DNA of 39,550 bases from an uncultured Gammaproteobacteria bacterium (GCA_964557475.1 CAZLAG010000002.1:1-39550), one strand, 5' to 3'. Positions 13,516 to 35,103 are shown, counted from the stretch's first letter. Notes: a model not told the origin generated them from the sequence alone. Numbers and translations are program-made.

Positions 13516-13518
13516 CAA

Positions 13519-13531
13519 TATATTATATATT
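13519..13531. promoter_or_regulatory. AT-only divergent spacer with back-to-back -10-like hexamers (minus-strand TATAAT 13527-13522; plus-strand TATATT 13526-13531)
   Basis: The minus-strand TATAAT is separated by exactly 6 nt from the A of the ATG at 13515. This is the geometry expected for a leaderless transcript. Such hexamers are common by chance in DNA this AT-rich. Confidence 0.35.
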
Positions 13532-13535
13532 TAAA

Positions 13536-16580: not shown

Positions 16581-18236
16581 ATGAAAATAAAAATTTTCAT
16601 CGCAATTCTTATTATATCCTTAGCTGCTTTTGTCCGGCTTTATCAATTAAACAATTTACCACCGTCACTTTACTACGATGAAATTGATGCTGGTTATCAA
16701 GCTCAGATATTTAATCAAAACAAGACTGACTATTATGGAAATAAGTTTCCAATTCATTTTCAATCATTCGGAGACTTTCGCACCTCTCTCCATATTTATA
16801 CCATTGCTTTAACTCAAAAAATTATTTCCAATCCCGATATATCTGTTAGATTACCATCAGCCATTTTTGGGATTTTATCAGTAATCATTTTTTATCTTAT
16901 TACCAAATCTTGGTTATCTGCCTTACTTTTAGCTATCTCACCTTGGGCAGTTCATTATAGTCGAATCGGTTTTGAAGTCTCTGGTATGCTCTTTTTTATT
17001 CTTTTAGGTATATATTTTTGGCAAAAATTTTTAAATCAACAAAAGATATTTTACCTTTATTTAGCCTCATTTTCATTTTGTCTCTCTCCATATTTTTATA
17101 GTACTTCTAAATTATTTTTAATATTTATTGGTCTGATTATACTTTTTACCAGTTATAGACAAATTTTTAGTCTCGGTTTTAAGAAGATATTTTTATTAAT
17201 TATATTCACTTTATTACTCTTAACTCCTTTAACTATAGATACCCTAAAAGGTAAGGCTGGTTTTCGTTTTCAATATATTAGTATTTTTACTCAACCGCAT
17301 TCAGAACAAATTGTTGATAGTCTTCGTTTTGAAGATGCTTCTATTGATCATCCGAACCAAATTGGTATCAAAACTTCTTTAGTTTCAAAAATTGCCCACA
17401 ATAAATATCAACTAGTGATCAATCGTTTTGTAAAAAATTATCTTTCATCATTTTCTATTAATTTTCTTTTGCTCGGCGGCGACAGTAATATAAGACATGG
17501 TTTTGGCGGTAATTTTGGTCTAATTTATATAACTGATTTATTTCTTATTATTTATGGATTTATATTTTTATTTTCCAGTAAAAAAAATACTTCATTAACT
17601 TCATTTTTATTCTATTTATTAATTCTTTCTCCAATTCCATACGCCTTAACCCGTGATACCGATTCACCTCATGCTACTAGGTTAATTTTAATGTTGCCAT
17701 CACTAATATATTTCACTAGTTTAGGAATTCAATTTTTAGTTAAGAAACATTCTTGGACAAAATATTTAATCTTCATCTTTTATTCCGTCAGTTTTTTAAA
17801 TTTTTGTCACTACTATAAATATCATTACCCAAATCAATCAGCCATGGCTTGGCAAACAGGCATGAAAGAGACAGTTATCGCTACCAACGAATATCCTCAA
17901 TCAACCCTTGTTTTTTCAGATAGTTATATTTCTTTTGTTTCATTTTTGCTTTATTACCGACCTTATTCCCTTACCAAAGGGGATTCTATAAAAAATCATC
18001 TAACTAATTTTTCCAATGAATCTTTTTCAGGACAACTACTCGATCATCAATTTTATTTTGGTACCATAAATTGGTCCAACACAAATAATTTTTCTGCCGA
18101 TACCTTATATATTGTTCCAAAATCTGAATATCAGGCTAAATCTTTATCATCTTCATTTAAGATACTCCGAAATATTCCCAAAAAATATACCAACCAAGAA
18201 GAATTTTATATAATTAAAAAAGAGTTATCTCGATGA
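16581..18236 (+). CDS. ArnT/PMT-like GT-C glycosyltransferase (GT39/GT83-like), paralogue 1 of the tandem array
   Basis: TM1, then LYYDEIDAGYQAQIF...FQSFGDFRT...HYSRIGFEVSG. Multi-TM core. The C-terminal soluble domain AWQTGMKETV... aligns with the paralogues. Confidence 0.8.
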   Translation: MKIKIFIAILIISLAAFVRLYQLNNLPPSLYYDEIDAGYQAQIFNQNKTDYYGNKFPIHFQSFGDFRTSLHIYTIALTQKIISNPDISVRLPSAIFGILSVIIFYLITKSWLSALLLAISPWAVHYSRIGFEVSGMLFFILLGIYFWQKFLNQQKIFYLYLASFSFCLSPYFYSTSKLFLIFIGLIILFTSYRQIFSLGFKKIFLLIIFTLLLLTPLTIDTLKGKAGFRFQYISIFTQPHSEQIVDSLRFEDASIDHPNQIGIKTSLVSKIAHNKYQLVINRFVKNYLSSFSINFLLLGGDSNIRHGFGGNFGLIYITDLFLIIYGFIFLFSSKKNTSLTSFLFYLLILSPIPYALTRDTDSPHATRLILMLPSLIYFTSLGIQFLVKKHSWTKYLIFIFYSVSFLNFCHYYKYHYPNQSAMAWQTGMKETVIATNEYPQSTLVFSDSYISFVSFLLYYRPYSLTKGDSIKNHLTNFSNESFSGQLLDHQFYFGTINWSNTNNFSADTLYIVPKSEYQAKSLSSSFKILRNIPKKYTNQEEFYIIKKELSR

Positions 18237-19906
18237 AATCAACAAAATCCAAAAAACCAATCATTAAACTGATATTAATATTAATATTTGCCCTTTTTAT
18301 TCGTTTTATCTTTCTAGACAAAATACCTGTTGGTATTAATGATGATGAACTTCATTTTGTTTTAAAAGCCAAAAGTTTTTTTTACGGTCAAACGATTTCT
18401 TTTGATGAAATGTCTAGTGTTATATTCTCTCCAATAATCGGCTTGTTACCTTTAAACCTAGTTACCGCTAGGCTGCCTTATATTGTTACAAGTGTCTTGT
18501 CAATAATTCTTCTTTATTTGATAGTCAAAAAAATAACTAAAAATACCAATTTATCTATATTTGTTGTTGTTGCTACTAGTCTTAATCCTTGGAGTATATA
18601 TACTGCCAGGACATCTTTTGACGCACCTGTAGCTCTTCTCTTTTTTCTATTATCTTTATATTTGATGCTAAAAGACAATAAATTTTCTATTCTTTTATCA
18701 ATTCCAATTGGTTTTCTGGCTTTTCATTCTTATATTGGAACGAAAGTCATTTATTTTCCTTTTATTTTTATTTCTGCTATCTACTGCTGGAAATTTATAA
18801 ATAAAAAATTTGGAATATATTATTTGGCTACCATTATTTTTTCTTTAATTATCACTCTCAATTTTGCTATTTCACTTTCTCATCAATCAGTTGGTCGACG
18901 TCTTTCAGAATTGTGGACTCCCTCATCACCCAAAATAGCTGCCATTGTTAACGATGAAAGGCGTGAATCTCTCAATCCAACTATTACTCTATTTACCAAT
19001 AAATACACTATCTACTTTAGAGAAGCATTTGAAAAATATCTCAATAATTTTTCTCCAAATGTCATGTTTTTAAACGGAGATGCAGCTTTTACTGGATCTC
19101 TTTGGATACATGGTTATTTTTATTATTTGGATATCATCCTAATAATTTTGGGAATGTTTTTTCTATTTCAAAGATATCGTTCTTTTTTCTTATTAATTAC
19201 TTCTTTTATTTTATTATCTCCAATTCCTGAGGCCATTCGTGGAGATTCTATTCCAGCTTATGTTTTTCATTCATCTTTGCAATATCCATTTTTATTCATA
19301 TTAGTCGGGGCTGGACTTTTTTATTTTTTTCAAATCTTTAAATCAAAATTGATTAGAATTGGTTTTATTTTTTTATATCTTTTAAGCTTTGCTAATTTCT
19401 TGAATATATATTTTCTCAAAGCTCCAGTCTACCAATCAGAAAGTTTTGTTCTTAGCTATCGTCTCATAAGTAAATATCTTTCCTTTGAAAGTAAAAACAA
19501 CAAAGAGATATATTTTTTAACTCATCAAACAGAACCTATTTACCATTCGTTTCTTTTTTATACAAATTCTCTAAACCGTAAAAATCTTGATTTCATTAAA
19601 GATGAATATAATAAAAAAGATGGTACCTTCAATTTTAAAAATATTCATTTTATTAATGAGACAAGTCATCTTCCAAAAGATAAAAATTATGTTCTAATTT
19701 ATGATGTTAATCAATTTAATTTTGATAATCTAAATAAAATTTATATCAATCAAATAGCTAGTAATAATAAAATTTTTGCTATCTCCAATGGATCAACATG
19801 TCAAAATATTCAAACAAAGAGTTTTGTTTCTAATTTTAATATTTCAGATTTAGAGATTGAAAAAATGAATGAAAATTATTTTTGTACCAAATTTATCAGC
19901 CAATAA
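18233..19906 (+). CDS. ArnT/PMT-like GT-C glycosyltransferase, divergent paralogue 2
   Basis: ATGA overlap with the upstream gene. TM1, then GINDDELHFVLKAKSFFYG...YTARTSFDAP. Multi-TM, with a ~170-aa C-terminal soluble domain. This is the most divergent member of the array. Confidence 0.75.
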   Translation: MKSTKSKKPIIKLILILIFALFIRFIFLDKIPVGINDDELHFVLKAKSFFYGQTISFDEMSSVIFSPIIGLLPLNLVTARLPYIVTSVLSIILLYLIVKKITKNTNLSIFVVVATSLNPWSIYTARTSFDAPVALLFFLLSLYLMLKDNKFSILLSIPIGFLAFHSYIGTKVIYFPFIFISAIYCWKFINKKFGIYYLATIIFSLIITLNFAISLSHQSVGRRLSELWTPSSPKIAAIVNDERRESLNPTITLFTNKYTIYFREAFEKYLNNFSPNVMFLNGDAAFTGSLWIHGYFYYLDIILIILGMFFLFQRYRSFFLLITSFILLSPIPEAIRGDSIPAYVFHSSLQYPFLFILVGAGLFYFFQIFKSKLIRIGFIFLYLLSFANFLNIYFLKAPVYQSESFVLSYRLISKYLSFESKNNKEIYFLTHQTEPIYHSFLFYTNSLNRKNLDFIKDEYNKKDGTFNFKNIHFINETSHLPKDKNYVLIYDVNQFNFDNLNKIYINQIASNNKIFAISNGSTCQNIQTKSFVSNFNISDLEIEKMNENYFCTKFISQ

Positions 19907-19912
19907 ATATCT

Positions 19913-21568
19913 ATGAATAAGAGAAAAATAATTATTTTAATTAGTATAATTTTAATCAGTTTAATAACTTTTTATCGTCTTTGTCGTCCTGGGTATTTTT
20001 CTATGATGGATGACATGCATGTTTTTCGTCTTCAACAATTTGATCAATGTCTTCATGATGGACAAATTCCTTGTCGTTTCATTAGTGATGGAGGGATGGG
20101 CTATGGTTACCCTCTTTTTAATTATTATTCACCTCTACCTTATTCCATTGCCGAAGGTTTTCATTTAATTGGTTTTAGTTTTATAAATAGTCTTAAAATC
20201 ACCTTTGCCTCTTGTCATTTAATTGGTGTTTTGGGAATGTTTTTATTCGCTTCTCTTTTTTGGGGAGAAACTGGAGCAGCTATTTCATCAATTATATTTT
20301 TATTAGCCCCTTATCAAGCCACAGACAGTTGGGTTAGGGGAGCTATAGCTGAATCCTTAGCCATCAATATTATTCCTTGGATTTTTTATTTTCTCACTCA
20401 ATTTATAAATCATAAAAAAAATAGATTACTTCTAATAGTTTCTTTAAGTAGTTTATTCTTAAGCCATAATTTAATTAGCTTGGCAATTGCTCCCGTATTA
20501 CTAATTTATTCAATAATTCTTTTATTAAAAAATAAAAATCTAAACTTAAAATCATTATTTAGATTAACTATTCCAGTTTTATTATCGCTTGGTCTTTCGG
20601 CATTTTTTGTGCTTCCAGCTATCTTTGAAAAAAATCTAGTTACCGTTGATACTATGACTCAAGGCTATTTTAATTATGTCAATCATTTTGCAACCCTAAA
20701 TCAACTTTTTATCTCTCGTTTTTGGGGATACGGTGCTTCACTTTGGGGCCCAATCGATGATATGGCATTTTCTGTTGGTTTAATCCAATGGTTACTGCCT
20801 TTAATTTCCATAATTTTAATTATTTTTAACAAACATAAAAAAAACTCTTTATCAATTATATTTTTCTTTTTAGTTTTTCTATTTTCACTTTTTTTGACCC
20901 ACAATAAATCTACTTTTATTTGGAAACTCTTTCCATTTATGCCTTATTTTCAATTCCCTTGGAGATTTTTATCAATAGCTATTTTTGCTGCTTCTTTTAT
21001 TTCCGGTTCGATCGTTCTTTTAATCAAGAAAAAATTTCAAACTATTATATTAATAATCATTGCTTTACTAACTATAATTTTAAATTTTTCTTACTTTAAG
21101 GAAGATATTTGGTATCCAAATTTAACTGACAAAGAAAAACTTTCAACAGAAAATATTATTGTTTCAAGTGGTGCTGGTCTCAAAGATTATTGGCCAAAAT
21201 TTGGTAAAAATTTCCCCAACTCTTTTTCTACTCAAAATCCAGTTGTTTTAAAAGGTAAAGTCGATTTTATTAAGTTTTACAAAAACTCTCATTCTGCCCA
21301 AGCTTATTTATCAGTTAATAGTGATAATGCCGTATTCAATTTACCTATGGTGTACTTCCCAAATTGGGAATTAAAAATTAATGGTCAAAATAGAGATTTT
21401 CAAATTGATCCAGATCTTGGTTTAATTCAATTAAATTTAACTTCAGGCCAATATAGTCTTGAACTAAAATTTAAAAACACTCCAATTCGTATTCTTGCCA
21501 ACTATTTTAGTTTAGCTTCATTAATTTTATTTGCTATTATGATAGTCAAGAAAAAAAATGAAAAATAA
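19913..21568 (+). CDS. Polytopic membrane protein, GT-C-like candidate (PTPS-related / YfhO-like type); paralogue of 36-1790
   Basis: RPGYFSMMDDMHVFRLQQ...GMGYGYPLFNYYSPLPY...HNKSTFIW...FQFPWRFL. Same architecture as 36-1790, including the C-terminal soluble domain plus terminal TM. Confidence 0.7.
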   Translation: MNKRKIIILISIILISLITFYRLCRPGYFSMMDDMHVFRLQQFDQCLHDGQIPCRFISDGGMGYGYPLFNYYSPLPYSIAEGFHLIGFSFINSLKITFASCHLIGVLGMFLFASLFWGETGAAISSIIFLLAPYQATDSWVRGAIAESLAINIIPWIFYFLTQFINHKKNRLLLIVSLSSLFLSHNLISLAIAPVLLIYSIILLLKNKNLNLKSLFRLTIPVLLSLGLSAFFVLPAIFEKNLVTVDTMTQGYFNYVNHFATLNQLFISRFWGYGASLWGPIDDMAFSVGLIQWLLPLISIILIIFNKHKKNSLSIIFFFLVFLFSLFLTHNKSTFIWKLFPFMPYFQFPWRFLSIAIFAASFISGSIVLLIKKKFQTIILIIIALLTIILNFSYFKEDIWYPNLTDKEKLSTENIIVSSGAGLKDYWPKFGKNFPNSFSTQNPVVLKGKVDFIKFYKNSHSAQAYLSVNSDNAVFNLPMVYFPNWELKINGQNRDFQIDPDLGLIQLNLTSGQYSLELKFKNTPIRILANYFSLASLILFAIMIVKKKNEK

Positions 21569-23216
21569 AATTTTATTTAGTTTAATTATTATCATTGCTT
21601 TTGTACTTCGTTTTTGGCAATTAAACAAATTTCCAGTATCTCTTAATTGGGATGAAATTAGTCATGGCTACAATACTTACAGTTTACTAAAAACTGGTAA
21701 AGATCAGTGGGGGATTTCATGGCCAATCTTTAATTTTAGAGCCTATGGTGACTATCCTACCACCTTAAATATGTATCTTTCTTTTCCCTTTGTATATTTT
21801 TTTGGTTTAAATGAATTTAGTATTAGAATTGTTTCCGCCCTTTGTGGTTTTGGTTTGGTAATAGTTTCATTTTTCTTGGGTCAAGAAATTTTTAAAAACA
21901 AAAAGATGTCATATTTCCTTATGTTTTTGGTGGCCATTTCGCCATGGACATTTTTTCCATCTCGTGGTGTCTTTCAATCCACTGTTGCTCAATTCTTTTT
22001 TTCTCTCGGCTTATTATTTTTAATTAAAGCCGTTAAAAAAATAAATTTTCTTCCCTTAGGTTTATTATTCGTTTCTATTTCTACTTACGCCTACCACAAC
22101 ACTAAAATTGTTGTCCCTCTTTTACTTTTAGCCTATCTTGTAATCTTTTTTCAAAAAACAAAAAATAATCTTTTTAGTCATCTAAAAGTATTTATTGTCA
22201 GTTTTCTAATTTTATTAGTTTTAATGACTCCTCAAGTAATCAATCTATTTAATAAAGATTCTCAAGCTAGAAGCCGTTGGGTTTTTGCTATCAATCCAGC
22301 CACAATCAACCAAATTGAAAACAATCGAAATAATTTTTCAGGCAATCCGCTAATTGCTAAATTTCTATACAATCGTGTTACTGTTTTTAGTCAAATTGTT
22401 GTCAAAAATTATCTTGGATTTTTAAATCCAAAAATACTTTTTTTTGATAGTACTCAGAATTTTCAATTTAATATTCCCGGGTTTGGAATTTTGTATTCTA
22501 TTTGTCTACCTTTTTATTATCTTGGCATAGTTTATTTAATTTTTAAAATTTTTAAAAAAGACCAAAATTCTTTATTTCTTCTATCATGGTTTCTTATTGG
22601 TCTAATTCCAGCAGTTATTACCGTTGGTGATTTTCCAATTCTTCGGGCTATGACCATACTGCCATTACCACAAATTTTTATTACTTTGGGTTGTTATCAA
22701 GCCACCAAAATCTTAAAAAACAAACAATTAAATAAAATATTTATTGCCTTATTTATGGTAATTTTAACATTTCAATCATTTAAATATTTTCAAAATTATT
22801 TTATTCTCTATGCCAAAAATCATTCAGATGCCTGGCAATATGGTTATAAACAAGCCGTGGATTATATAAAAGATAATTATAATAATTACGATCAAATCAT
22901 TTTTACAAAAAAATATGGCGAAGCTCATGAATTTATTCTTTTCTATTGGCCGTGGAATCCATCTATTTACCAAACTGATCCAAATTTAGACTGGGATTAT
23001 CATGCTGATTGGTATTGGGTTAATGCTTTTGATAAATTTAAATTTATCAACGATTGGGAAATAAAAGCCAAAACTAAGAAGTTAAATTCCAAAACACTTT
23101 TAATCACCTCTCCAGGCAACTATAATCAAGAAGATAGTCATTTAATAAAAACTATTAATTTTTTAAATGACCAACCGGTGTTTGATATTTTAGAATTAAA
23201 TGAAATCCAAAAATAA
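21558..23216 (+). CDS. ArnT/PMT-like GT-C glycosyltransferase, paralogue 3
   Basis: 11-nt overlap with the upstream gene. LNWDEISHGYNTYSLLKTGKDQWG...FRAYGDYPT...PSRGVFQS. C-terminal domain AWQYGYKQAVDYIKDNY. Confidence 0.8.
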   Translation: MKNKILFSLIIIIAFVLRFWQLNKFPVSLNWDEISHGYNTYSLLKTGKDQWGISWPIFNFRAYGDYPTTLNMYLSFPFVYFFGLNEFSIRIVSALCGFGLVIVSFFLGQEIFKNKKMSYFLMFLVAISPWTFFPSRGVFQSTVAQFFFSLGLLFLIKAVKKINFLPLGLLFVSISTYAYHNTKIVVPLLLLAYLVIFFQKTKNNLFSHLKVFIVSFLILLVLMTPQVINLFNKDSQARSRWVFAINPATINQIENNRNNFSGNPLIAKFLYNRVTVFSQIVVKNYLGFLNPKILFFDSTQNFQFNIPGFGILYSICLPFYYLGIVYLIFKIFKKDQNSLFLLSWFLIGLIPAVITVGDFPILRAMTILPLPQIFITLGCYQATKILKNKQLNKIFIALFMVILTFQSFKYFQNYFILYAKNHSDAWQYGYKQAVDYIKDNYNNYDQIIFTKKYGEAHEFILFYWPWNPSIYQTDPNLDWDYHADWYWVNAFDKFKFINDWEIKAKTKKLNSKTLLITSPGNYNQEDSHLIKTINFLNDQPVFDILELNEIQK

Positions 23217-24831
23217 ACTATTTCTCATCATTATCGTTTTAGTTTCCTTTTTAATCAGAATTTATCAATCTCAGCAATATCCTTCCTTACTTTGGGATGA
23301 AGCTGCTTTAGGTTACAATGCTTATTCAATTCTAGAAACTGGCAAAGATGAATATGGTCAATTTCTACCAATTATTTTTAAATCATTCGGAGACTACAAA
23401 CCAGGATTTTATGTTTATCTTTGTCTTCCCTTTATTAAAGTCTTTGGACTCAATCAACTTTCTACCAGATTACCATCAATAATTTTAGGTTCACTGCTTC
23501 CTCTTTTTATTTTTCTTCTTATAAAAGAAATTAGTCCCAAATCTCACAAGGTAGCTCTAATTGCTGCTTTTATAACTGCTTTCAATCCATACAATATTCA
23601 TTTTAGTCGTGGTGCTTGGGAAACTAATATTCTTACAGTTGAACTTGTTTTAGCTTGTTTTCTATTTTATCGTTATTTAAATCGACATAAATCCAAATAT
23701 TTATTATTTTCTGCTATTACTTTTGGTCTTACCCTTTTTACTTATCAAGCAGGAAAAATGATTAGTTTATTTCTCATCATTATTCTTTTTCTTCTTCATT
23801 TCAAATCTTTAAATATCAAAAAAACAATAATAAATTTTATTATTCCATTAGGTATATTTACACTTCCTATTCTTTACGGGCTCATTTTTAGTAGTAATTC
23901 TAATAGATTGAAAGTTGTAAGTTTACTTTCTTATCCTAGATCTCAACAGGAAACACAAACAATTATTAATGAAACGAATCAACTAGATTACTCCATCTTT
24001 TATAGTCAACCAATCTATTTTGTTAAAAACTTTTTATCTCGATATTTTAATCATTTTTCACCTAGATTTCTTGCTTTCGAAGGTGATTGGCAAAATCCTC
24101 GACACTCAGCACCATACGTTGGAGTTATTTTGTATCCTAGCTTGATATTCCTATTTATAGGCATATTTTTTGGTCTAAGTCGAAAAAAAATTGATCACTT
24201 AAATCTCTTCTTTCTTCTTTGGTTATTAGTCGCTCCAATACCAGCCGCCCTAACTAGAGACTCAATTCAAGCTGTTAGGTCAATGTCTCTTTCAATTCCT
24301 TTAATATATTTTATTTCCTTAGGTTTATTCGCTTTTTTTGAAAAATTTAAATCAAAAATTCTATTTATATTTATAATAATGATTTATCTATTATCTTTTG
24401 TTTATTATTTTGATCTTTATCTAAATCACACTGTCAAAAGAAATCCAATTGATTATCTTTATGGCTATAAACAAGCCATTGATTATATTCAAAAAAATCA
24501 GAATCGATTTAATCGAATTTATTTAACTGATTATTATCAACAACCATATATCTATTATTTATTTTATTCAAAATATTCTCCTTCAAAATATCAACAGCAA
24601 GCAAACTTAGAAGAAGCTTCTCTTGATACTGGTAAAATAAAAATAATTGACAATATTCGTTTTGAAACCGCTCAATTTAATTTTATTAAAGATCATCCTG
24701 GTACTTTAGGTATTTTTTCCCAAGAAGAAATATATCGACAAGGAATAGATCAAAAACCGGAATTTTCTCAGTTTATTCCACTTAGTCCAATTGGGAATAT
24801 TTCCACTTTTTATGCTTATGAAAATCCATAA
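23200..24831 (+). CDS. ArnT/PMT-like GT-C glycosyltransferase, paralogue 4
   Basis: 17-nt overlap with the upstream gene. LLWDEAALGYNAYSILETGKDEYG...FKSFGDYKPG...HFSRGAWE. C-terminal YLYGYKQAIDYIQKNQ. Closest paralogue to 24818-26437. Confidence 0.8.
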   Translation: MKSKNKLFLIIIVLVSFLIRIYQSQQYPSLLWDEAALGYNAYSILETGKDEYGQFLPIIFKSFGDYKPGFYVYLCLPFIKVFGLNQLSTRLPSIILGSLLPLFIFLLIKEISPKSHKVALIAAFITAFNPYNIHFSRGAWETNILTVELVLACFLFYRYLNRHKSKYLLFSAITFGLTLFTYQAGKMISLFLIIILFLLHFKSLNIKKTIINFIIPLGIFTLPILYGLIFSSNSNRLKVVSLLSYPRSQQETQTIINETNQLDYSIFYSQPIYFVKNFLSRYFNHFSPRFLAFEGDWQNPRHSAPYVGVILYPSLIFLFIGIFFGLSRKKIDHLNLFFLLWLLVAPIPAALTRDSIQAVRSMSLSIPLIYFISLGLFAFFEKFKSKILFIFIIMIYLLSFVYYFDLYLNHTVKRNPIDYLYGYKQAIDYIQKNQNRFNRIYLTDYYQQPYIYYLFYSKYSPSKYQQQANLEEASLDTGKIKIIDNIRFETAQFNFIKDHPGTLGIFSQEEIYRQGIDQKPEFSQFIPLSPIGNISTFYAYENP

Positions 24832-26437
24832 AATTATTCTTCCTCTAATTTTAGTCGTCGCTTTTTTAATTCGATTTGTTGATATTAGTAATACACCAGC
24901 TTTAAATCCTGATGAGGCTGCTCTAGGCTACAATGCTTATTCTTTAATTCAAACAGGTAAAGATGAACATGGAGTCTCTTGGCCACTTCATTTCAAATCA
25001 TTTGGCGATTATAAACCAGGCGGATACGTATATTTGGCCATACCATTCATAAAATTACTTGGGGTTACACCATTGGCCGTCAGATTACCGAATTTAATTC
25101 TATCTATATTAACTATCCTTTTTTTGTATAAACTTGTTTTGCTATTTACTAAAAACTATTCACTATCAAGCTTGACCGCTTTTGTTTTAGCGGTCAGTCC
25201 TTGGCACATCCATTTTAGTCGAGGAGCCTGGGAATCATCAGCTGCTCTCTCATTTATTATGATTGGTACTTATTTCTTTTTTAAGTCTATTCAGTCAAAA
25301 TTTATAAAAAACTTTTCCTTTTTTCTGGTTTTTTATATCGGATCACTTTATATTTATCATTCAGCCAGACTTATTGCTCCACTTTTAGGTCTTTCTTTAT
25401 GTATTTTATATTTCAAATTTCTTTTCAAAAAACTTCCTCAAATATTAATTCCTTTATTTTTTGCTGCTGTTTTGGTTTTTCCAGTTCTTTTTTCTTTTTT
25501 AAACAATGGGGGAACAACCAGACTCGGAGGAGTTGGTCTATCTGCTGATCAAGGACCTATCAATCGTTCTAATGAATTATTAAATCAACATCAAAGCTTG
25601 AGTCTTCCCATAAGAATTATTCACAATAAAAAGGTCTTATATCTTATTTCTTGGGCTCAAAAATATTCTTCTCATTTTGATTTAAACTTTTTAATTATTA
25701 ATGGCGATGAAGTTCCTAGATCTAAAGTACCTGAAAACGGACAATTGCTTTTAATTGATTTTGTTTTTCTTCTTGTTGGTCTTATATTTACTATTAAAAC
25801 CAAAATATTCGCCAATAAAACTAAAATATTTTTATTCCTTTTTCTTTTCATTTCGCCAATTGCTTCTTCTCTAACATTTCAAGCTCCATCAGCTCTAAGG
25901 GCATTGGCTATGATTATTCCATTATCAATATTTATTGCTGGAGGTATCTTTAGTTTTATTGAATTTATCAAAAAATATCGGATATATCGATATATATCAA
26001 TATTATTTATTCTTATATATGCTTACTTTGCCGCTTATTATTTAGATAGTTATTTCTTTCATTATGCCAAAAGATACCCATTTGCTTGGCAATATAAATT
26101 TGACGAACTTGTTCCTTTTGTCGAATCACAAAAAAATGAATTTAAGAATATCTATATTACTAATAAATATGATCAACCGTATATCCTTTTTCTCTTCTTT
26201 TCAAAATACCCTCCAACCCAAATTCAATCTCAAATCAAATTAACAACGCCTGACAAATATGGTTTTTCTACAGTTATTGGATACGACAACTATCATTTTG
26301 GTACAATTGATTGGAATCAAATTCCAAATAATTCTTTAGTAGTTGCTTCAGACGAAACCATTACTGGTGGAGAACTTATTAAAACAATTAATTTCTCTAA
26401 TGGTCAACCAGCCTTTAAAATTTATCAAAAGAAATGA
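24818..26437 (+). CDS. ArnT/PMT-like GT-C glycosyltransferase, paralogue 5
   Basis: The track starts at TTG 24791. ATG 24818 (MKIHKIILPLILVVAFLIRF) matches the paralogue N-termini; ATG 24812 is also possible. Motifs: NPDEAALGYNAYSLIQTGKDEHG...FKSFGDYKPG...HFSRGAWE. Confidence 0.8.
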   Translation: MKIHKIILPLILVVAFLIRFVDISNTPALNPDEAALGYNAYSLIQTGKDEHGVSWPLHFKSFGDYKPGGYVYLAIPFIKLLGVTPLAVRLPNLILSILTILFLYKLVLLFTKNYSLSSLTAFVLAVSPWHIHFSRGAWESSAALSFIMIGTYFFFKSIQSKFIKNFSFFLVFYIGSLYIYHSARLIAPLLGLSLCILYFKFLFKKLPQILIPLFFAAVLVFPVLFSFLNNGGTTRLGGVGLSADQGPINRSNELLNQHQSLSLPIRIIHNKKVLYLISWAQKYSSHFDLNFLIINGDEVPRSKVPENGQLLLIDFVFLLVGLIFTIKTKIFANKTKIFLFLFLFISPIASSLTFQAPSALRALAMIIPLSIFIAGGIFSFIEFIKKYRIYRYISILFILIYAYFAAYYLDSYFFHYAKRYPFAWQYKFDELVPFVESQKNEFKNIYITNKYDQPYILFLFFSKYPPTQIQSQIKLTTPDKYGFSTVIGYDNYHFGTIDWNQIPNNSLVVASDETITGGELIKTINFSNGQPAFKIYQKK

Positions 26438-27258
26438 AAAACAAATCGACTCTTTCAGTCACCCTAGCTGTTTACAATGAATCAAAAAACATAACTCGTT
26501 GTCTTGAGGCTATTAAAGATATTGCTAACGAAATTATCGTTGTTGATGGTCAATCACAAGACGATACTGTTTTATTAGCCAAGAAATTCAAAAAAGTAAA
26601 AGTAATTTCTACTACCAACAAACCCATGTTTCATATCAATAAACAAATGGGGATTGATGCTTGTAAAAGTGACTGGATTCTTCAACTTGATGCTGATGAA
26701 ATTGTTACTTCCGAGTTAAAAAAAGAAATTAATCATATTCTTCAAAAAGATCCAAATGATATAAAAGAATCTGGATTTTGGATTCCACGTAAAAATTATT
26801 TTTTAGGATCTTTTCTAAAAAAAGGTGGTCAATATCCTGATCCTACAATTATATTTTATAAAAGCGGTCAAGCCCATTTACCTTGTAAAGATGTTCACGA
26901 ACAAGCTGAAGTTAGTGGTTTAGTTGGCTGGCTCAAAAATGATCTAGAACATTATGCAGATACTTCTTTTTCTTTATACCTTCTTCGAGCCAATCGTTAT
27001 ACTACACTCTTAGCTAACGAATTAAAAGAAAAAAAAGTTAAAATTAATATCTTTAATTTTTTAAATTATTATTTTTTAAAACCTCATTGGTGGTTTTTAA
27101 AAACTTTTTTTAGACATCGTGGTTATGTTGATGGTTTTCCTGGTTTTGTTTTCTCTTTTTATTCAGCTCTTCGTTTTCCCATTGCCTACACTAAATATTA
27201 CGAATTAATTAAAACCAATCGAGATATAAATTTATCACAAGATTGGGATAAAAAATAA
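26434..27258 (+). CDS. Family 2 glycosyltransferase (GT-A), WaaE/KdtX-like subtype
   Basis: ATGA overlap. LSVTLAVYNESKNITRCL...IIVVDGQSQDDT...LQLDADE...GQYPDPTIIFYKSG. Third member of this subtype in the window. Confidence 0.85.
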   Translation: MKNKSTLSVTLAVYNESKNITRCLEAIKDIANEIIVVDGQSQDDTVLLAKKFKKVKVISTTNKPMFHINKQMGIDACKSDWILQLDADEIVTSELKKEINHILQKDPNDIKESGFWIPRKNYFLGSFLKKGGQYPDPTIIFYKSGQAHLPCKDVHEQAEVSGLVGWLKNDLEHYADTSFSLYLLRANRYTTLLANELKEKKVKINIFNFLNYYFLKPHWWFLKTFFRHRGYVDGFPGFVFSFYSALRFPIAYTKYYELIKTNRDINLSQDWDKK

Positions 27259-27259
27259 T

Positions 27260-28330
27260 ATGCCAAAAATAGCTATCAATATTTCTCCAATTTTTGATGG
27301 TAACTCTATTAGAGGAGTTGGTTATTATACTACCAATCTTATTGACGCCATTCAAAAAGAAATTAAAAAAGATAAACAATATAAAGGATGGTCTATTAAG
27401 CTTATTAAAAAAACTATTACCACTAAATCAGGTAAATATGATTTAGTTCATTATCCATTTTTTGATCCTTTTAGTCTAACTCTTAAGATTGATCCATATA
27501 TTCCGACTATAGTTACAGTCCACGATCTTATTCCACGAGAGTTTCAAAAACATTTTCCAGTTGGTGTTAAAGGAGAATTAAAATGGTTTATTCAAAAAAA
27601 TCTTCTAAAAAGAGTTGATCGAATAATTACTGTTTCTGATTATTCCAAAAAAATAATAAATCAAATAACAAATTACCCAACTAATCGAATTTTTACTACT
27701 CATTTAGCCGCCGACCCATCCTTTAAACCAATTAACGATAAACAAAGATTAAAAGAAATCCAGCAAAAATATCATCTTCCAAAAAAATTTGTTTTATTTA
27801 TAGGCGATATAAATTGGAATAAAAACGTTCCTAATTTAGTAAAAGCCTGCCAACAAGCCAATTATCCTCTAGTTATTGTCGGCTCTAGCGCCACCAAGCA
27901 AAACGTTCCCGTTCACCCTTGGACAAAAGATCTTCATTGGCTTCAATCTCAAAATTATCCGAATCTCATTAAAACTGGTTTTATTCCTGATGAGGAATTG
28001 CCTATTTTTTATAATTTAGCCACTGTTTATTGTCAACCATCATTTGCAGAAGGTTTTGGACTACCTCTCACTCAAGCCATGCAATCAGGTTGCCCTGTAG
28101 CTTATAGTCAAACCAGTTGTCTTCCAGAAATTATGTCTCAAAATGGCATTTCTTTTGACCCTTACTCCGTAAGGAGTATAAAAAATGCTCTAAAAGAATA
28201 TTGGGATAACCCTAAAGTTAGACAAAAATATAGTCAACAAGCACTTATTTATGTCAAAAAATTTAACTGGAGCTCAACTGCCAAAAATACTCTAGCAGTT
28301 TACAAATTAGCTCTTTTAAATGGAAAATAA
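27260..28330 (+). CDS. GT-B fold glycosyltransferase, family 4-like
   Basis: FAEGFGLPLTQAMQSGCPVAYSQTSCLPEIM (EX7E-type region), and N-terminal GVGYYT. Confidence 0.85.
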   Translation: MPKIAINISPIFDGNSIRGVGYYTTNLIDAIQKEIKKDKQYKGWSIKLIKKTITTKSGKYDLVHYPFFDPFSLTLKIDPYIPTIVTVHDLIPREFQKHFPVGVKGELKWFIQKNLLKRVDRIITVSDYSKKIINQITNYPTNRIFTTHLAADPSFKPINDKQRLKEIQQKYHLPKKFVLFIGDINWNKNVPNLVKACQQANYPLVIVGSSATKQNVPVHPWTKDLHWLQSQNYPNLIKTGFIPDEELPIFYNLATVYCQPSFAEGFGLPLTQAMQSGCPVAYSQTSCLPEIMSQNGISFDPYSVRSIKNALKEYWDNPKVRQKYSQQALIYVKKFNWSSTAKNTLAVYKLALLNGK

Positions 28331-29126
28331 ACAACATTTTTTATCGGTAATTGTCCCTATCTACAAACAAGAAAAAACAATCAAAAAAGATCTTACTGAT
28401 ATTGATCAAGTTTTAAAGCAAATTCGTTATGATTATGAAATAATTGCCGTTGTTGATGGTAAAAAAGAAGATAATTCATATAAAATTGCCAAAAAAATAA
28501 AAATTCCTAAACTAAAAGTTTTTGGATATCAAAATAATCATGGAAAAGGTTATGCAGTTCGTTTTGGTATGGCCAAAACCAAAGGGGATTACATTGCATT
28601 TATTGATGCTGGTATGGAAATCGACCCAAATGGTATTTCGTTAATCATAGAGCACATGGAATGGTATAACGCCGATATTATTGTTGGTTCAAAACGACAT
28701 CCAGCTTCACAAATTGATTACCCTATTGATCGTAGAATTGTTAGTTTTGGCGGCCACTTAATCGCTAAGTATTTATTAGGCATTAATATTCATGATACTC
28801 AAGCCGGTTTAAAAATATTTAAACGATCTGTTTTGATTAAAGTTTTACCCAGACTACTTATCAAACGATATGCTTTTGACTTAGAGATACTTTCAGTTGC
28901 TAATCATCTAGGTTTTAAAAAAATATATGAAGCTCCAATTAAGCTAAATTATAATTTCACTAGTCTTACTCACGCTACTGGCTTCAAAACTATTTATAAT
29001 TGTCTCGTGGATAGTTTAGCAGTTTTTTACCGACTCAGAATCATCAATTATTATGATGATAAAAATAAAAGAAAATGGATTTACGATCCTGAATTATCAA
29101 TGCGTATCAATACCGGCGAACAATGA
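28320..29126 (+). CDS. Family 2 glycosyltransferase of the DPM1/ALG5/GtrB type (candidate polyprenyl-phosphate hexose synthase)
   Basis: LSVIVPIYKQEKTI...VDGKKEDNS...GKGYAVRFGM...FIDAGMEIDP...IVGSKRHPAS...IHDTQAGLKIFKRSVL. The DTQ.G.K.F.R signature is characteristic of Dol-P-Man / Dol-P-Glc synthase-like enzymes. Confidence 0.75.
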   Translation: MENKQHFLSVIVPIYKQEKTIKKDLTDIDQVLKQIRYDYEIIAVVDGKKEDNSYKIAKKIKIPKLKVFGYQNNHGKGYAVRFGMAKTKGDYIAFIDAGMEIDPNGISLIIEHMEWYNADIIVGSKRHPASQIDYPIDRRIVSFGGHLIAKYLLGINIHDTQAGLKIFKRSVLIKVLPRLLIKRYAFDLEILSVANHLGFKKIYEAPIKLNYNFTSLTHATGFKTIYNCLVDSLAVFYRLRIINYYDDKNKRKWIYDPELSMRINTGEQ

Positions 29127-30100
29127 ATCCTATTTTTTCAGTAATTATTCCAGTCAGAAAAATTAATCCCTATCTTAGGGAAACATTAAAAGAACTCAAA
29201 AACCAATCTCGAAAAAATTTTGAAGTTTTAGTAATTACCGACGAAATTTCAGGGTCAGCTAATCCTGCAGAAAAAAGAAATTTAGGTGCCAAAAAAGCTA
29301 AAGGTGAATATTTAGTTTTCTTTGATGACGATTCATATCCACAAAAAAATTATTTTAAAAATGCTCAAAAACTAATTGAAAATAATTCTAAAATTAATAA
29401 TTTTTGTGGTCCTTGTCTAACTCCACCAAAAGATAATATATTACAAAAAGCATCTGGACTTGTTTGGTCTAGTTGGTTGGGAAGTGGCGGAGCTGGACAT
29501 TATCGCAACCATATTTCTTCAAAAAGATTCGTTGATGATTATCCCAGTGTTAACCTAATCGTCAAAAAAACAGATTTTATCAAAATTGGTGGTTTTGTCA
29601 CTTCTTATTGGCCTGGAGAAGACACTCTTTTATGTTTGGATATAACCAAAAAGCTTCATCAAAAAATTCTTTATCATCCCACATTGATTGTTTACCACCA
29701 TCGTCGTCAAGTTGTAACTGCTCATCTTCAACAAATAACACGATATGCTATTCATCGTGGTTTTTTTGCTCGCAAATTTCCTGAAACCAGTTTCAAAATT
29801 GGTTACTTTATTCCCTCATTTTTTGTTTTATATTTATTTCTATTAGCTATTAACTATTTTACTATTAGCTATAATTTATTGTATGTTCCATTATATTTAT
29901 ATTTATCAATATTAATTATTACCTTAATAAAATTCATTTTAAATAAAAATTCATTATTATTATCTTTATTAGCCATAATTACTATTCCAATCACTCACAT
30001 TTACTACGGTATACTATTTATAAATGGCTTCTTCAAAAAAGATGTTAAATTCAAACCACACACCTTTGATCAAAAAACCGGTAAATATATCGGTGGTTAA
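29123..30100 (+). CDS. Family 2 glycosyltransferase with C-terminal transmembrane helices
   Basis: ATGA overlap. FSVIIPVRKINPYL...NFEVLVITDE...GEYLVFFDDDSYP...WPGEDTLLCLD. About 3-4 hydrophobic helices in the last ~100 aa. Confidence 0.8.
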   Translation: MNPIFSVIIPVRKINPYLRETLKELKNQSRKNFEVLVITDEISGSANPAEKRNLGAKKAKGEYLVFFDDDSYPQKNYFKNAQKLIENNSKINNFCGPCLTPPKDNILQKASGLVWSSWLGSGGAGHYRNHISSKRFVDDYPSVNLIVKKTDFIKIGGFVTSYWPGEDTLLCLDITKKLHQKILYHPTLIVYHHRRQVVTAHLQQITRYAIHRGFFARKFPETSFKIGYFIPSFFVLYLFLLAINYFTISYNLLYVPLYLYLSILIITLIKFILNKNSLLLSLLAIITIPITHIYYGILFINGFFKKDVKFKPHTFDQKTGKYIGG

Positions 30101-31517
30101 ATCCATCAGTATTTCCTATCCACCAATAAATTCTTCAAAAGGATCTGCATTTTTGTCTCAAAATCGTCAATTTCAGTGGACAAATACTGGTAATGTAATT
30201 TTTCCTGTTATTTTAGGATATGCTGCTAGTCTCCTAAAAAAAGAAGGTTTAAAAGTTTTTTGGGATGATGGTATTGCCCAAAAAATTAGTTACCAAAAAT
30301 GGTTTCAAAATATCCAAAAAAATAAACCAGATTTAATTGCTATTGAAACCAAAACTCCTGTAGTCAAAAAACATTGGCAAGTTATCAAAGAAATTAAAAA
30401 TAAATGCTCATGGAATCCAATTGTAGTTCTTATGGGTGATCATGTTACTGCACTTCCTCAAGAATCTATTGACAATAGTCCTGTTGATTATGTCTTAGTA
30501 GGTGGAGATTATGATTTTCTTTTGTCAGATCTTATTAAAAAAATTAATTCTAATTTTAAATTCAAAAGTAAGATATTTAAATTGACCGCAGAAAACAATT
30601 TAAATCAATTACCTATTATTGATCGTCAACTCACTCAATGGGAATTGTATGCCTACAACAATACCAACTATAAATACAAACCAGGTGCCTATATTATGTC
30701 TGGTCGAGATTGTTGGTGGGGTAAATGTACTTTTTGTAGTTGGACTACTCTTTTCCCAGGTAAATGCTTTCGTTCTTTTTCTGTCAAACATACTATCGCC
30801 GAAATTGAAAACTTAGTCAATAATTTTGGCATTAAAGAAATATTTGATGATTCAGGCACATTACCTACAGGTTTATGGCTAAAACAACTTTGTCACCAAT
30901 TAATCAAAAAGAAATTAAATCAAAAAGTAAAAATTGGTTGTAATATGCGATTTGGCGCTTTATCTTCAAAAGAATATCGACTTATGTATCAAGCTGGTTT
31001 TCGGTTTGTTTTATATGGTCTTGAGTCAGCCAACCAAAAAACTCTAGAATTTATCAACAAAAATGAAACTACTAAAGATGCCTTAAACACGCTAAAAATT
31101 GCCAAAAAGAACAAACTCCAACCTCATATTACTATTATGGTTGGTTTTCCCAATGAAACCAAATCTGATATTCAAAAAACCTTAAATTTATCTCAAAAAA
31201 TTTTTCAACTTGGTTTAGCCGACAGTTTACAAGCTACTCTATTAATTCCTTATCCAGGCACACCTCTTTTTGATTACTGCAAAAAAAACAATCTTTTACT
31301 CACTCAAGATTGGAACAAATTTGATATGCGCCAGCCAATTATCAAAACTAGTTTAAAATCAGAAGAAATAAATACATACATTCAAAAATTCTTCAAAAGT
31401 ATTTTTACTCCAAGATTTATTTTAAATAAAATTATTTCCATAAGATCAATAGATGATGTTAAATACCTTTTATTCTACGGATTAAAATTCATTAAAAAAT
31501 TAAAAGATTTTCAATGA
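30093..31517 (+). CDS. B12-binding-domain radical SAM enzyme (class B-like / HpnJ-like)
   Basis: The track starts at ATG 30024, 77 nt inside the upstream gene. GTG 30093 (8-nt overlap) gives VVKSISISYPPINS..., resembling typical N-termini of this family, so the start is uncertain. Rossmann-like B12-binding region (PDLIAIETKT...VVLMGDHVTALPQE...VDYVLVGGDYD), then the Cys cluster SGRDCWWGKCTFCSW. Confidence 0.8.
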   Translation: MVKSISISYPPINSSKGSAFLSQNRQFQWTNTGNVIFPVILGYAASLLKKEGLKVFWDDGIAQKISYQKWFQNIQKNKPDLIAIETKTPVVKKHWQVIKEIKNKCSWNPIVVLMGDHVTALPQESIDNSPVDYVLVGGDYDFLLSDLIKKINSNFKFKSKIFKLTAENNLNQLPIIDRQLTQWELYAYNNTNYKYKPGAYIMSGRDCWWGKCTFCSWTTLFPGKCFRSFSVKHTIAEIENLVNNFGIKEIFDDSGTLPTGLWLKQLCHQLIKKKLNQKVKIGCNMRFGALSSKEYRLMYQAGFRFVLYGLESANQKTLEFINKNETTKDALNTLKIAKKNKLQPHITIMVGFPNETKSDIQKTLNLSQKIFQLGLADSLQATLLIPYPGTPLFDYCKKNNLLLTQDWNKFDMRQPIIKTSLKSEEINTYIQKFFKSIFTPRFILNKIISIRSIDDVKYLLFYGLKFIKKLKDFQ

Positions 31518-32530
31518 TTCAAGTCAGTTTTATCATTCCAACATTAAATGCCCAAAAAGTTTTATCAAAATGTCTAACTTCAATTAGTAAACAAAATTAT
31601 CCCAAATCAAATTATGAAATATTAATTATTGATGGGGGATCAACCGACAAAACTATAAATATTGCCAAAAAATTTAATTCAAAAATATTAAAAAATCCCC
31701 TAAAAACCGCTGAAGCCGGTAAATCAGTAGGTATCAGGAAAGCTCGTGGAAAATATGTTTGTTTAATCGATTCCGATAATATATTACCTCACAAATCTTG
31801 GTTAAAACAAATGATTTTTCCCATGGAACAAGACAATCGTTTAATTGGTTCAGAACCGATTAAATTTACTTATCGATCAAATTCTGGTTTTATGGAACGA
31901 TATTCAGCTCTTATTGGAGCCAACGACCCATACGCATTTATAACCGGCGTTTATGATCGACAAAATTATCTCAATAATAAATGGACTGGCCTAAAAATAG
32001 ATCAAATCGACAAAGACAAATATATTGTTTTAACTCTTAAACCAAAAACAATTATTCCTACCATTGGTGCTAATGGTACAATTTTTAGAACCATTTTTCT
32101 CCAACAAAATTTAAATTCAGATTATTTCTTTGATATTGATATCATTTCTCAAGTTTTATCAAAAAATAACCAAGCACTATATTTTGCCAAAGTTAAAACA
32201 GGTATCATTCACACTTTTTGTGAAGATTCGTTAACCAAATTTATTCGTAAACAAAAAAGAAGATTAACTGATTTTTATTATTATCAAAAATTTCGCCAAT
32301 ATGATTGGCAGCCAGTTAATCAACAATCTCAAATTAAATTTATTTTATATACCATTTTGGTATTTCCAGCTCTTTTTGATTCAATTAGAGGTTTTATTAA
32401 AAAACCCGATCCAGTTTGGTTTTTACATCCAATATTATGCTTAATTACTCTTTTTTGTTACACTCTTATCACCTTACAATTTAAATTTGGTTTGTTAAAA
32501 CCAATTAATCGTAATTTATGGCATCAATAG
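31514..32530 (+). CDS. Family 2 glycosyltransferase with two C-terminal TM helices (GtrB/ArnC-like architecture)
   Basis: ATGA overlap. VSFIIPTLNAQKVL...ILIIDGGSTDKT...GKYVCLIDSDN. C-terminal FILYTILVFPALF and HPILCLITLFCYTLITL. Confidence 0.8.
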   Translation: MIQVSFIIPTLNAQKVLSKCLTSISKQNYPKSNYEILIIDGGSTDKTINIAKKFNSKILKNPLKTAEAGKSVGIRKARGKYVCLIDSDNILPHKSWLKQMIFPMEQDNRLIGSEPIKFTYRSNSGFMERYSALIGANDPYAFITGVYDRQNYLNNKWTGLKIDQIDKDKYIVLTLKPKTIIPTIGANGTIFRTIFLQQNLNSDYFFDIDIISQVLSKNNQALYFAKVKTGIIHTFCEDSLTKFIRKQKRRLTDFYYYQKFRQYDWQPVNQQSQIKFILYTILVFPALFDSIRGFIKKPDPVWFLHPILCLITLFCYTLITLQFKFGLLKPINRNLWHQ

Positions 32531-33516
32531 ATATCTTAATTCCCACCTATAATGGGGCAAAATGTATTACTCAAACATTAAAAAGTATTCTTTCTCAGGA
32601 TTTTGATGATTTTGAAATCATCATTTCCGATGATGTTTCCAAAGACAATACAATTGCTGTTATCAAAAAAATTAAAGATAAAAGAATTAAAATCTTTAAG
32701 AATAAAAAAAATCTTGGTTATTCATTAAACTTAGAAAACGCTCGAAGATTAGCTACCGCCGACATCATTTACCTTATGGGGCAAGATGATATTATGGCCA
32801 CACATACTCTCAAAAATACTTTTAATGCTTTTAAAGATCCCAAAATTGGAGCCGTCACCAGACCCTATTATTGGTTTGATAAAAAAATAAAAACTCCAGT
32901 CCGAGCCAAAAGACAATTAGATTCCACCAAAGATACTGTTGTAAAAATTACCGATGACCCTCAAAAAGTAATTCGAGTCTTTGAAACTTTGGATCAATTA
33001 TCAGGTTTGGCCTATCGTAAAAAATTTATGAAATTACCTTTTCACCCTGATATTTTTCCTTGTCATATTTATCCTTTTGCTGACATTTTCAAAAATCACC
33101 CAGTCATGTTTCTCAAAGATTATAATATTGCTGTCCGTATCGCCAGTAGTCAGACTAGAAGTCTTTCGTCTATTTACAATAAATCTCCACTTTTAAGTTG
33201 GGTTGAAATGGTTAAATCAATTTTTAGTGAAAAGAAGTATCAAAGTGTTCAAAAATATTTAATTAAAAATTTCATTACCAAAAATTATGTTGGATTAGTT
33301 CAACTTCGTAATTATGCTCGCTATAAATATTTTCTTAGAGAAATTTGGTATTTGGTTAAATTTAATTATTTAAATTTATTAAATCCTGCATTTTGGTTTT
33401 TTTCATTAGGTTGTATTATCACGCCACCCTTTATTCTTATCCCTATGGTTGATAATTACAAAAACAAAATTTATTCAAAAAGTTTGACTAAAATTAAATT
33501 TGAATATAAATTTTGA
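32518..33516 (+). CDS. Family 2 glycosyltransferase
   Basis: IDILIPTYNGAKCITQTL...EIIISDDVSKDNT...NLGYSLNLENA...YLMGQDD. One hydrophobic C-terminal segment. Confidence 0.8.
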   Translation: MASIDILIPTYNGAKCITQTLKSILSQDFDDFEIIISDDVSKDNTIAVIKKIKDKRIKIFKNKKNLGYSLNLENARRLATADIIYLMGQDDIMATHTLKNTFNAFKDPKIGAVTRPYYWFDKKIKTPVRAKRQLDSTKDTVVKITDDPQKVIRVFETLDQLSGLAYRKKFMKLPFHPDIFPCHIYPFADIFKNHPVMFLKDYNIAVRIASSQTRSLSSIYNKSPLLSWVEMVKSIFSEKKYQSVQKYLIKNFITKNYVGLVQLRNYARYKYFLREIWYLVKFNYLNLLNPAFWFFSLGCIITPPFILIPMVDNYKNKIYSKSLTKIKFEYKF

Positions 33517-33517
33517 T

Positions 33518-35100: not shown

Positions 35101-35103
35101 TTT

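Follow-up and report, generated by a model that had tools for sequence, protein, structure and literature searches.

By sequence comparison, ORF A, one of three neighbouring family 2 glycosyltransferase (GT2) genes in a bacterial glycan cluster, belongs to the polyprenyl-phosphate glycosyltransferase (Pren-P GT) superfamily; its immediate neighbour, ORF B, does not, and ORF C is best described as a membrane-anchored GT2 without specific support as a Pren-P GT. The cluster is carried by a stretch of 39,550 nucleotides (nt), here called the window, which was deposited under the name of an uncultured Gammaproteobacteria bacterium. An earlier note on this DNA had treated A, B and C alike, as synthases of up to three polyprenyl-phosphate-linked monosaccharides for the nearby GT-C glycosyltransferases. 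We propose instead that A is the only Pren-P GT among them, and that its product is elaborated by B, flipped across the membrane and used by GT-C enzymes outside, a reading to which we attach about as much belief as doubt. The ORF coordinates and the motifs quoted for A proved exact: GSKRHP occupies residues 123-128 of A, and IHDTQAGLKIFKR residues 157-169. The three ORFs and the radical S-adenosylmethionine (SAM) gene between B and C are the following.

28320..29126 (+): ORF A, 268 amino acids (aa), GT2 without transmembrane (TM) helices, assigned to the Pren-P GT superfamily (ALG5/DPM1/PpgS-like)
29123..30100 (+): ORF B, 325 aa, membrane-anchored GT2, not a Pren-P GT
30024..31517 (+): B12-binding radical SAM enzyme, between B and C, with family-level similarity to HpnJ and BchE only
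31514..32530 (+): ORF C, 338 aa, GT2 with two C-terminal TM helices and no specific Pren-P GT similarity

All three ORFs passed the Pfam Glycos_transf_2 model (A, 7.5e-25; B, 2.5e-13; C, 3.2e-23), and each had more than 2000 homologues, the best 120 of which were 64-100% identical; they are genuine genes under strong conservation. A library-wide search with A returned 59,039 relatives, roughly 7000 of them at E below 1e-10. When A was compared with the PDB as a single sequence, the best match was the Pyrococcus dolichyl-phosphate (Dol-P)-mannose synthase 5MLZ (PfDPMS), followed by GtrB and ArnC among generic GT2s. Two profiles were also used, an A-clade profile of 27 close homologues and a deep family profile built on 66 diverse relatives that consist of a single domain and share 34-57% identity with A. 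With the A-clade profile, PfDPMS ranked top (E 5e-14, residues 8-175), and the alignment to every other GT2 ended near residue 115. The deep profile placed three enzyme types highest, PfDPMS (1.9e-30, residues 6-230 of 258), GtrB (4e-27) and ArnC (9e-25), and GT2s other than Pren-P GTs aligned in the nucleotide-binding half only, to about residue 120. The NCBIfam matches that spanned the catalytic domain of A were all Pren-P or Dol-P sugar synthases (ArnC, PgfS, PpgS, AglJ and a Dol-P hexose transferase), with the best E-values across the 66 family members at 1e-27 for ArnC, 1e-26 for PgfS and 2e-22 for PpgS. The earlier description of A as a DPM1/ALG5-type synthase was thus borne out, the top PDB matches extending over the whole catalytic domain. 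The motifs GSKRH, DTQAGLK and AFDLE may resemble those of yeast ALG5, which we take as a lead only. Yeast ALG5 (143 bits) and human DPM1 (139 bits) both aligned full length to the A-family profile; this result, also a lead only, did not discriminate between the two subtypes.

A Kyte-Doolittle scan of A found no segment at the TM hydrophobicity threshold, and the C-terminal helices seen in GtrB and ArnC (two) and in PfDPMS (four) have no counterpart in it. Not all Pren-P GTs have such helices: human DPM1 is without them and relies on DPM2/3 (PMC4973528), and GacI has a separate membrane protein, GacJ, as its partner (PMC8035078). By these comparisons A belongs with the TM-less subtype, in a form with a variant metal-binding motif. 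Four features mark the family in the structural study of ArnC: TM helices, juxtamembrane helices, a site of Arg, Arg and Ser for the acceptor phosphate, and the DADLQx motif, whose second Asp and Gln are metal ligands and whose first Asp has been proposed as the base (PMC12690121). At the DXD position, A carries D96-A-G98-M-E100 (window 28605-28619) rather than the canonical DADLQ[H/D/N]. The pattern D-[AS]-G-M-E was invariant in the 27 close homologues, with the first Asp retained. Across the wider A family the motif was D-A-D-x-[DE]: D-x-D was found in 114 of 146 representatives and an acidic residue at +4 in 136, and the second Asp was replaced by Gly in 30. The motif of A is, on this comparison, a variant and not a loss of all carboxylates. 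Because the second Asp is Gly in so many representatives while the +4 acidic residue is nearly universal, a shift of the metal ligand within the family is suggested, with E100 probably taking the role of the absent second Asp and D96 proposed as the catalytic base. In HMMER alignments to 5mlz, the acceptor-phosphate residues R117, R131 and S135 of PfDPMS (R128, R137 and S141 in ArnC; PMC12690121) corresponded to K125, R138 and S142 of A, the first position showing a conservative Arg-to-Lys change. These residues were present in 145, 145 and 142 of the 146 representatives, respectively, and are predicted to hold the acceptor phosphate. The D159-T-Q-A-G-L-K165 motif was also present, and the close homologues were 76-96% identical among the best 120, which we read as strong purifying selection.

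The altered DXD motif bears on the alternative that A is inactive as a Pren-P GT in this clade and instead regulates or scaffolds B as one of its subunits, or that it glycosylates some other phosphate or hydroxyl acceptor. The Gly found in all 27 close homologues and in 30 of the 146 representatives speaks for this alternative, and the AlphaFold model of A, built with the 27 close homologues, reached a mean predicted local distance difference test (pLDDT) score of only 48. However, the first Asp, the +4 acidic residue (136/146), the Lys/Arg/Ser set and DTQxGxK show little or no variation, in a protein under strong purifying selection, and the D91A mutant of PfDPMS is reported to lose less activity than D89A (PMC12690121). 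We consider an inactive A improbable.

The TM architecture described earlier for the other two ORFs was confirmed, with three C-terminal helices in B (residues 226-246, 251-275 and 278-303, from the Kyte-Doolittle scan and the model) and two in C (about 275-293 and 301-325, Kyte-Doolittle). C-terminal TM helices behind a GT-A domain are, however, not diagnostic of GtrB or ArnC. The model of B (pLDDT 88) consisted of a GT-A domain, an interface helix (199-218) and the three TM helices. No Pren-P GT occurred among the PDB sequence and profile matches of B, which covered the N-terminal half only, and none of GtrB, DPMS and ArnC was among the top 50 fold matches of its model. Foldseek returned TarP, BcsA, hyaluronan synthases (HAS), chondroitin polymerase (K4CP) and PglI-like enzymes, with TMq values of 0.51-0.62 for BcsA and HAS and the upper value reached by HAS. 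The A-family profile aligned to B in two fragments only, at 15 bits. D40, D68-D-D70, G165-E-D167 and Q204-x-x-R207-Y208 were invariant in 36 homologues of B, the last motif lying on the interface helix, and many homologues carried PF13632. From these motifs and the model, B is classified as a D,D,D,QxxRW-type membrane GT2 with a BcsA/HAS/NodC-like active site, a layout that is typical, as judged by sequence, of enzymes glycosylating a sugar hydroxyl at the membrane surface. Its three TM helices stand against the six or more of a polymer-translocation channel, and B is probably not a translocating synthase. Its nucleotide-binding half is about 20 residues shorter than in GalT1 and TarS. The GtrB/ArnC-type assignment of B was abandoned, the BcsA/HAS/NodC-type motifs being the kind of affiliation that the earlier note had itself set against it.

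The same assignment fared no better for C. The Pren-P GT profile matched its residues 3-107 only and did not extend into the acceptor half; PDB matches, with the single sequence and with a profile, were confined to the N-terminal 90-130 residues, and DPMS, GtrB and ArnC ranked low among them. The invariant residues of C were D40, D86-S-D88, F-D207-I-D209 and K246-Q-x-R-R250, with about 40 residues between D207/D209 and K246-R250, a layout that mirrors B. That A, B and C are all polyprenyl-phosphate-sugar synthases making three different donors now appears very improbable. The GT-A domains and C-terminal helices that B and C share with GtrB and ArnC agree with it, as does an hhalign comparison in which C ran against the A clade through 216 columns, an ambiguous result from one comparison with gaps of 7 and 28 residues. 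The lack of any Pren-P GT sequence or fold match for B, together with its GED and QxxRY motifs, largely refutes it for that gene, and for C it is opposed by the profile match limited to the N-terminal 107 residues and by the B-like DSD...FDID...KQxRR arrangement.

The genomic context of A was established from 45 species-representative loci with enough flanking sequence, 32 of which were full-length. In the window, the genes 5' of A are as follows.

26434..27258 (+): GT2 of 274 aa, with which the conserved GT2-GT4-A-B block begins
27260..28330 (+): GT4 glycosyltransferase, with an 11-nt overlap with the start of A
16581..26437 (+): tandem array of six paralogues, each about 550 aa, polytopic and GT-C-like, with PMT_2, PMT or PTPS_related matches, several of them weak

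B lay directly 3' of A, and a GT4 gene directly 5' of it, in all 45 loci; the GT2-GT4 pair preceded A in 44. The order B-radical SAM-C followed A in 33 of the 45, and in several of the other loci listed the radical SAM ORF was split or duplicated. GT-C-like genes were found upstream in 32/32 full-length loci (mean of 4.8 within 10 kb). The stops and starts of the six paralogues in the window overlap, and related genomes carry at least five such genes upstream of the conserved block; they are presumed to be users of Pren-P-linked sugars. Within the block the genes overlap by 4-13 nt (4 nt for A and B), and these short overlaps suggest a single operon. The exception is the 77-nt overlap of the radical SAM ORF with B as listed, so that its true start probably lies later than 30024. 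The best NCBIfam matches of the radical SAM protein were HpnJ (129 bits) and BchE, far below the cut-offs. Sugar C-methylation or rearrangement would be a conceivable role for it.

Gene fusions were surveyed in the best 150 representatives of the A family at 50% identity. A-B fusions, in the same order as the genes of the window, occurred in at least 16 of the 150, with E-values for the B domain down to 1e-72, and about 33 of the 150 carried a domain of 9-14 TM helices N-terminal to A. Four of the latter were examined with Pfam; all were Wzx-like, and two had a C-terminal GT4 domain as well. Further fusions joined A to GT4 or to UDP-GlcNAc-2-epimerase. Examples of fusion proteins are P0362, P0364, P0368, P0371, P0394, P0395, P0414, P0461, P0431, P0445 and P0476. 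The Wzx-A-GT4 proteins were about 1060-1090 aa long, and some relatives of A had N-terminal domains of 2-4 or 7-8 TM helices. In an unrelated organism of 73% GC (L008:10001-20248), the gene after a Wzx-A-GT4 fusion encoded a protein of 1218 aa, and one of 641 aa was encoded close by on the other strand, with a methyltransferase and a GT2 between these two. The 1218-aa and 641-aa proteins had 9-10 N-terminal TM helices and a large external domain, were GT-C-like and gave no Pfam match; no phosphoglycosyltransferase (PGT) was found in the locus. The partners of A in these fusions (B-like GT2s, GT4s and Wzx) suggest further elaboration and flipping of a Pren-P-sugar.

The window makes up an entire contig, and its flanks were read from a 100.6-kb contig about 99% identical to it. 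Upstream, that contig carries more PMT_2 genes and two further TM-less GT2s, U1 and U2. U1 (L004:2377-3105, about 5.9-5.1 kb upstream of window position 1) had ArnC as its best PDB match (E 8e-17, residues 5-217). U2 (L004:5962-6726, about 2.3-1.5 kb upstream) matched GtrB (E 7e-17) and DPMS (2.5e-13) and contained the ALG5-like motifs GSR, IDTQCGFK and FDVELL. Both have canonical DXD motifs (DSD and DMD, respectively), match the Pren-P GT profile over their full length and lie among PMT_2 genes. As judged by these matches, the island holds three paralogous Pren-P GTs, of which U1 and U2 lie beyond the window. The proposed number of up to three donors may therefore hold, with U1 and U2 in place of B and C, to which two of them had been ascribed. 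All other GT2s of the window were also considered as extra Pren-P GTs and rejected, their matches being limited to the N-terminal half. Downstream, the cluster ends at a TPR gene, which is followed by CofD, DUF3800, ABC2 and Fic genes. In agreement with the earlier note, which had recognised no enzyme priming undecaprenyl diphosphate (Und-PP), neither the window nor the flanking sequence (about 8 kb upstream and 3 kb downstream) yielded a priming PGT (Bac_transf or Glycos_transf_4).

In the mechanism that we favour, A would load one sugar onto polyprenyl phosphate to give a Pren-P-sugar. Lacking a membrane anchor of its own, A would dock on B, its translationally coupled neighbour. B, the GT2 with three TM helices, would recognise a sugar hydroxyl at the membrane surface and, probably together with the adjacent GT4 and with C, extend or decorate the Pren-P-sugar while it is still on the monophosphate carrier. 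What the analysis itself shows is that A belongs to the Pren-P GT family and B does not, together with the conserved gene order and the gene fusions. We infer that B acts on the product of A and that the carrier stays a monophosphate, just as we infer the identity of the sugar and the targets of the GT-C enzymes. The B12 radical SAM enzyme would modify a sugar, a Wzx-type flippase would export the product, and the upstream array of PMT/ArnT-like GT-C enzymes would use the Pren-P-linked sugars outside the membrane. The window has one flippase candidate, which had been missing from the earlier note.

1763..3217 (+): Wzx-type (MOP family) flippase (Polysacc_synt_3, E 4e-45)

A GtrA-type flippase was looked for in the window and not found; an ORF of 150 aa at 13066-13518 (-) was considered for this role and rejected, as it combines one N-terminal TM helix with a soluble domain that contains Cys. 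The same ORF, which has no family assignment, is called as a gene on the related contig too. The flippase, together with three GT4s and many Leloir GT2s, argues against the earlier suggestion that the chemistry consists mostly of direct monosaccharide transfer.

The main rival is a purely classical donor role, in which the Pren-P-monosaccharide made by A is flipped and used directly by GT-C enzymes. B, C, the GT4s and the remaining GT2s would then build a separate Und-PP-linked glycan, for which a PGT gene at another site would supply the priming enzyme and Wzx would be the flippase, and the link between A and B would reflect co-regulation or membrane anchoring and no consecutive chemistry. 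We regard this three-component arrangement as a genuine, if minority, possibility. Genes for initiating PGTs such as WecA often lie apart from glycan clusters, and a Wzx flippase and many Leloir glycosyltransferases are present. Genes of the GT-C type lay directly upstream in all loci examined, U1 and U2 each stand amid PMT_2 genes with no B-like partner, and the pairing of a Pren-P GT with a GT-C enzyme is universal (PMC8035078). It leaves unexplained, however, the recurrent fixed-order fusions of A to B-like GT2s and GT4s, as well as compact loci such as L008, where Wzx-A-GT4 and GT-C-like proteins occur with no PGT. Fusions and synteny cannot separate this rival from elaboration of the A product by B.

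Several observations weigh against the elaboration scheme. The fusions constitute functional linkage, not proof that B uses the product of A. Wzx flippases are the classical partners of Und-PP-linked repeat units, and a priming PGT could sit elsewhere in the genome, the sequence covered around the window being about 8 kb upstream and 3 kb downstream. The catalytic competence of A, which lacks the canonical second Asp of DADLQ, is assumed, and its model is of low confidence. Given the ambiguous hhalign result, a small probability also remains that C is a very divergent Pren-P GT.

Pfam analysis of the window, which has a GC content of about 28% and consists almost entirely of one plus-strand glycan cluster, identified about 12 polytopic GT-C-like proteins (PMT_2, PMT, GT87, PTPS_related or YfhO matches, many of them weak), ten GT2s, three GT4s and one Wzx-type flippase, as well as a B12-binding radical SAM protein, a SPASM radical SAM protein, a hexapeptide acyltransferase, two methyltransferases and a TPR protein. 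The ALG6/8-like label given earlier to two of the GT-C proteins could not be upheld: ORF 13452-14837 matched Pfam Alg6_Alg8 at E 2e-3 and 17.5 bits, against a cut-off of 25, and had no match to a solved glycosyltransferase sequence. 3' of C the gene content of the cluster becomes variable.

32518..33516 (+): another GT2, with a single TM helix at its C-terminus, matched by the Pren-P GT profile in its N-terminal half only
33500-37744: variable tailoring tail (hexapeptide acyltransferase, radical SAM/SPASM protein, two SAM methyltransferases and a GT4)
36944-37744: methyltransferase

The TM helix of the GT2 at 32518-33516 had not been recorded in the earlier note. In related genomes, NDP-sugar epimerases or dehydratases take the place of the tailoring tail at 33500-37744.

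The source names of the close homologues place the window in Candidatus Shapirobacteria, of the Candidate Phyla Radiation (CPR)/Microgenomates lineage, and the gene block with A, B and C is conserved throughout the Shapirobacteria. Many contigs titled 'uncultured Gammaproteobacteria', 'Methanoperedens' or 'Bacteroidales' (L010-L016, L056, L070 and others) showed the same synteny, with A homologues 70-80% identical; such contigs probably belong to Patescibacteria and were wrongly labelled or binned. Genomes of CPR bacteria are tiny. Since a conserved glycosyltransferase operon and a dozen or more GT-C enzymes are kept in this reduced lineage, the glycan product is probably central to the cell envelope or to host attachment. 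A more far-reaching proposal, which we rate as rather unlikely, is that Shapirobacteria and their relatives make a conserved envelope glycan independently of any PGT: A would prime polyprenyl monophosphate, B, GT4 and C would extend, the radical SAM enzyme would remodel, Wzx would flip and GT-C enzymes would transfer. If this were true, these bacteria would have an archaeal-style, AglJ/AglK-like monophosphate pathway as a core system, and the A-B, A-GT4 and Wzx-A-GT4 fusions would mark its presence in other phyla. More generally, a GT2 with C-terminal TM helices must not be taken for a GtrB-like enzyme. The fusions of the A family to B-like GT2s, GT4s and Wzx offer a testable handle on euryarchaea-like glycan building on polyprenyl monophosphate in bacteria, and the invariant D-x-G-x-E serves as a natural experiment that bears on which carboxylates are required in such an enzyme. 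The donor-user logic between Pren-P-sugar synthases and GT-C genes, on which the earlier note was built, remains plausible, but as such it is an ordinary, already known kind of system. What is new is the change of the DXD motif to D-x-G-x-E, the obligate pairing of A with B and its fusion families, the conserved B12 radical SAM gene within the block and, for a reduced genome, the size of the GT-C array. A literature search on CPR bacteria and GT-C glycosylation found no matching work.

Compared with the known Pren-P GTs PfDPMS, GtrB and ArnC, A shares the whole catalytic domain including the acceptor half, the first DXD Asp, the Lys/Arg/Ser set and D-x-x-G-x-K/R, and like them it adjoins GT-C genes. 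It is free of TM helices, as are human DPM1, mycobacterial PpgS and streptococcal GacI, and like these it presumably depends on a partner in the membrane. It differs in having D-A-G-M-E in place of DADLQ[HDN], in that its likely partner B is a full GT2 and not a small membrane protein, and in the recurrent fusion of A-like domains to GT2, GT4 and Wzx. The GtrA/B/C, CsbB/GtcA/YfhO and GacI/J/K/L systems follow the same logic of a Pren-P-sugar synthase, a flippase (here of Wzx type, as proposed for GacK) and a GT-C enzyme, and in the GacI/GacJ/GacK/GacL system a TM-less synthase is likewise combined with a membrane partner and a Wzx-type flippase (PMC8035078). The window departs from them with its approximately 12 GT-C-like genes (and more upstream), the absence of a GtrA-type protein and the embedding of the synthase in a conserved GT2-GT4-A-B-radical SAM-C operon. 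B shares with BcsA, hyaluronan synthase, NodC, PgaC and TarP the residues D, DDD, GED and QxxRY, the last at the start of an interface helix that is followed by TM helices, and C may tentatively be placed with them; B differs from BcsA and hyaluronan synthase in having too few TM helices for a translocation channel. The assembly proposed here is paralleled in euryarchaeal Dol-P N-glycan assembly (AglJ-AglG/I/E, AglK-AglC and AglD/AglR/AglS), where a DPM1-like GT2 primes and GT2s extend in the cytoplasm, AglG acting after AglJ and AglC after AglK (PMC3871713, PMC8993221). There the Wzx-like AglR and Agl15 are implicated in flipping, GT-C finishes outside and no PGT is needed. No AglB/STT3-type oligosaccharyltransferase was recognised in our analysis. 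A matched the NCBIfam model of AglJ at 34 bits and B weakly that of AglG (E 3e-3); the similarity is at family level only, the host here is a bacterium, and the chemistry that we propose for it is drawn from gene fusions and synteny.

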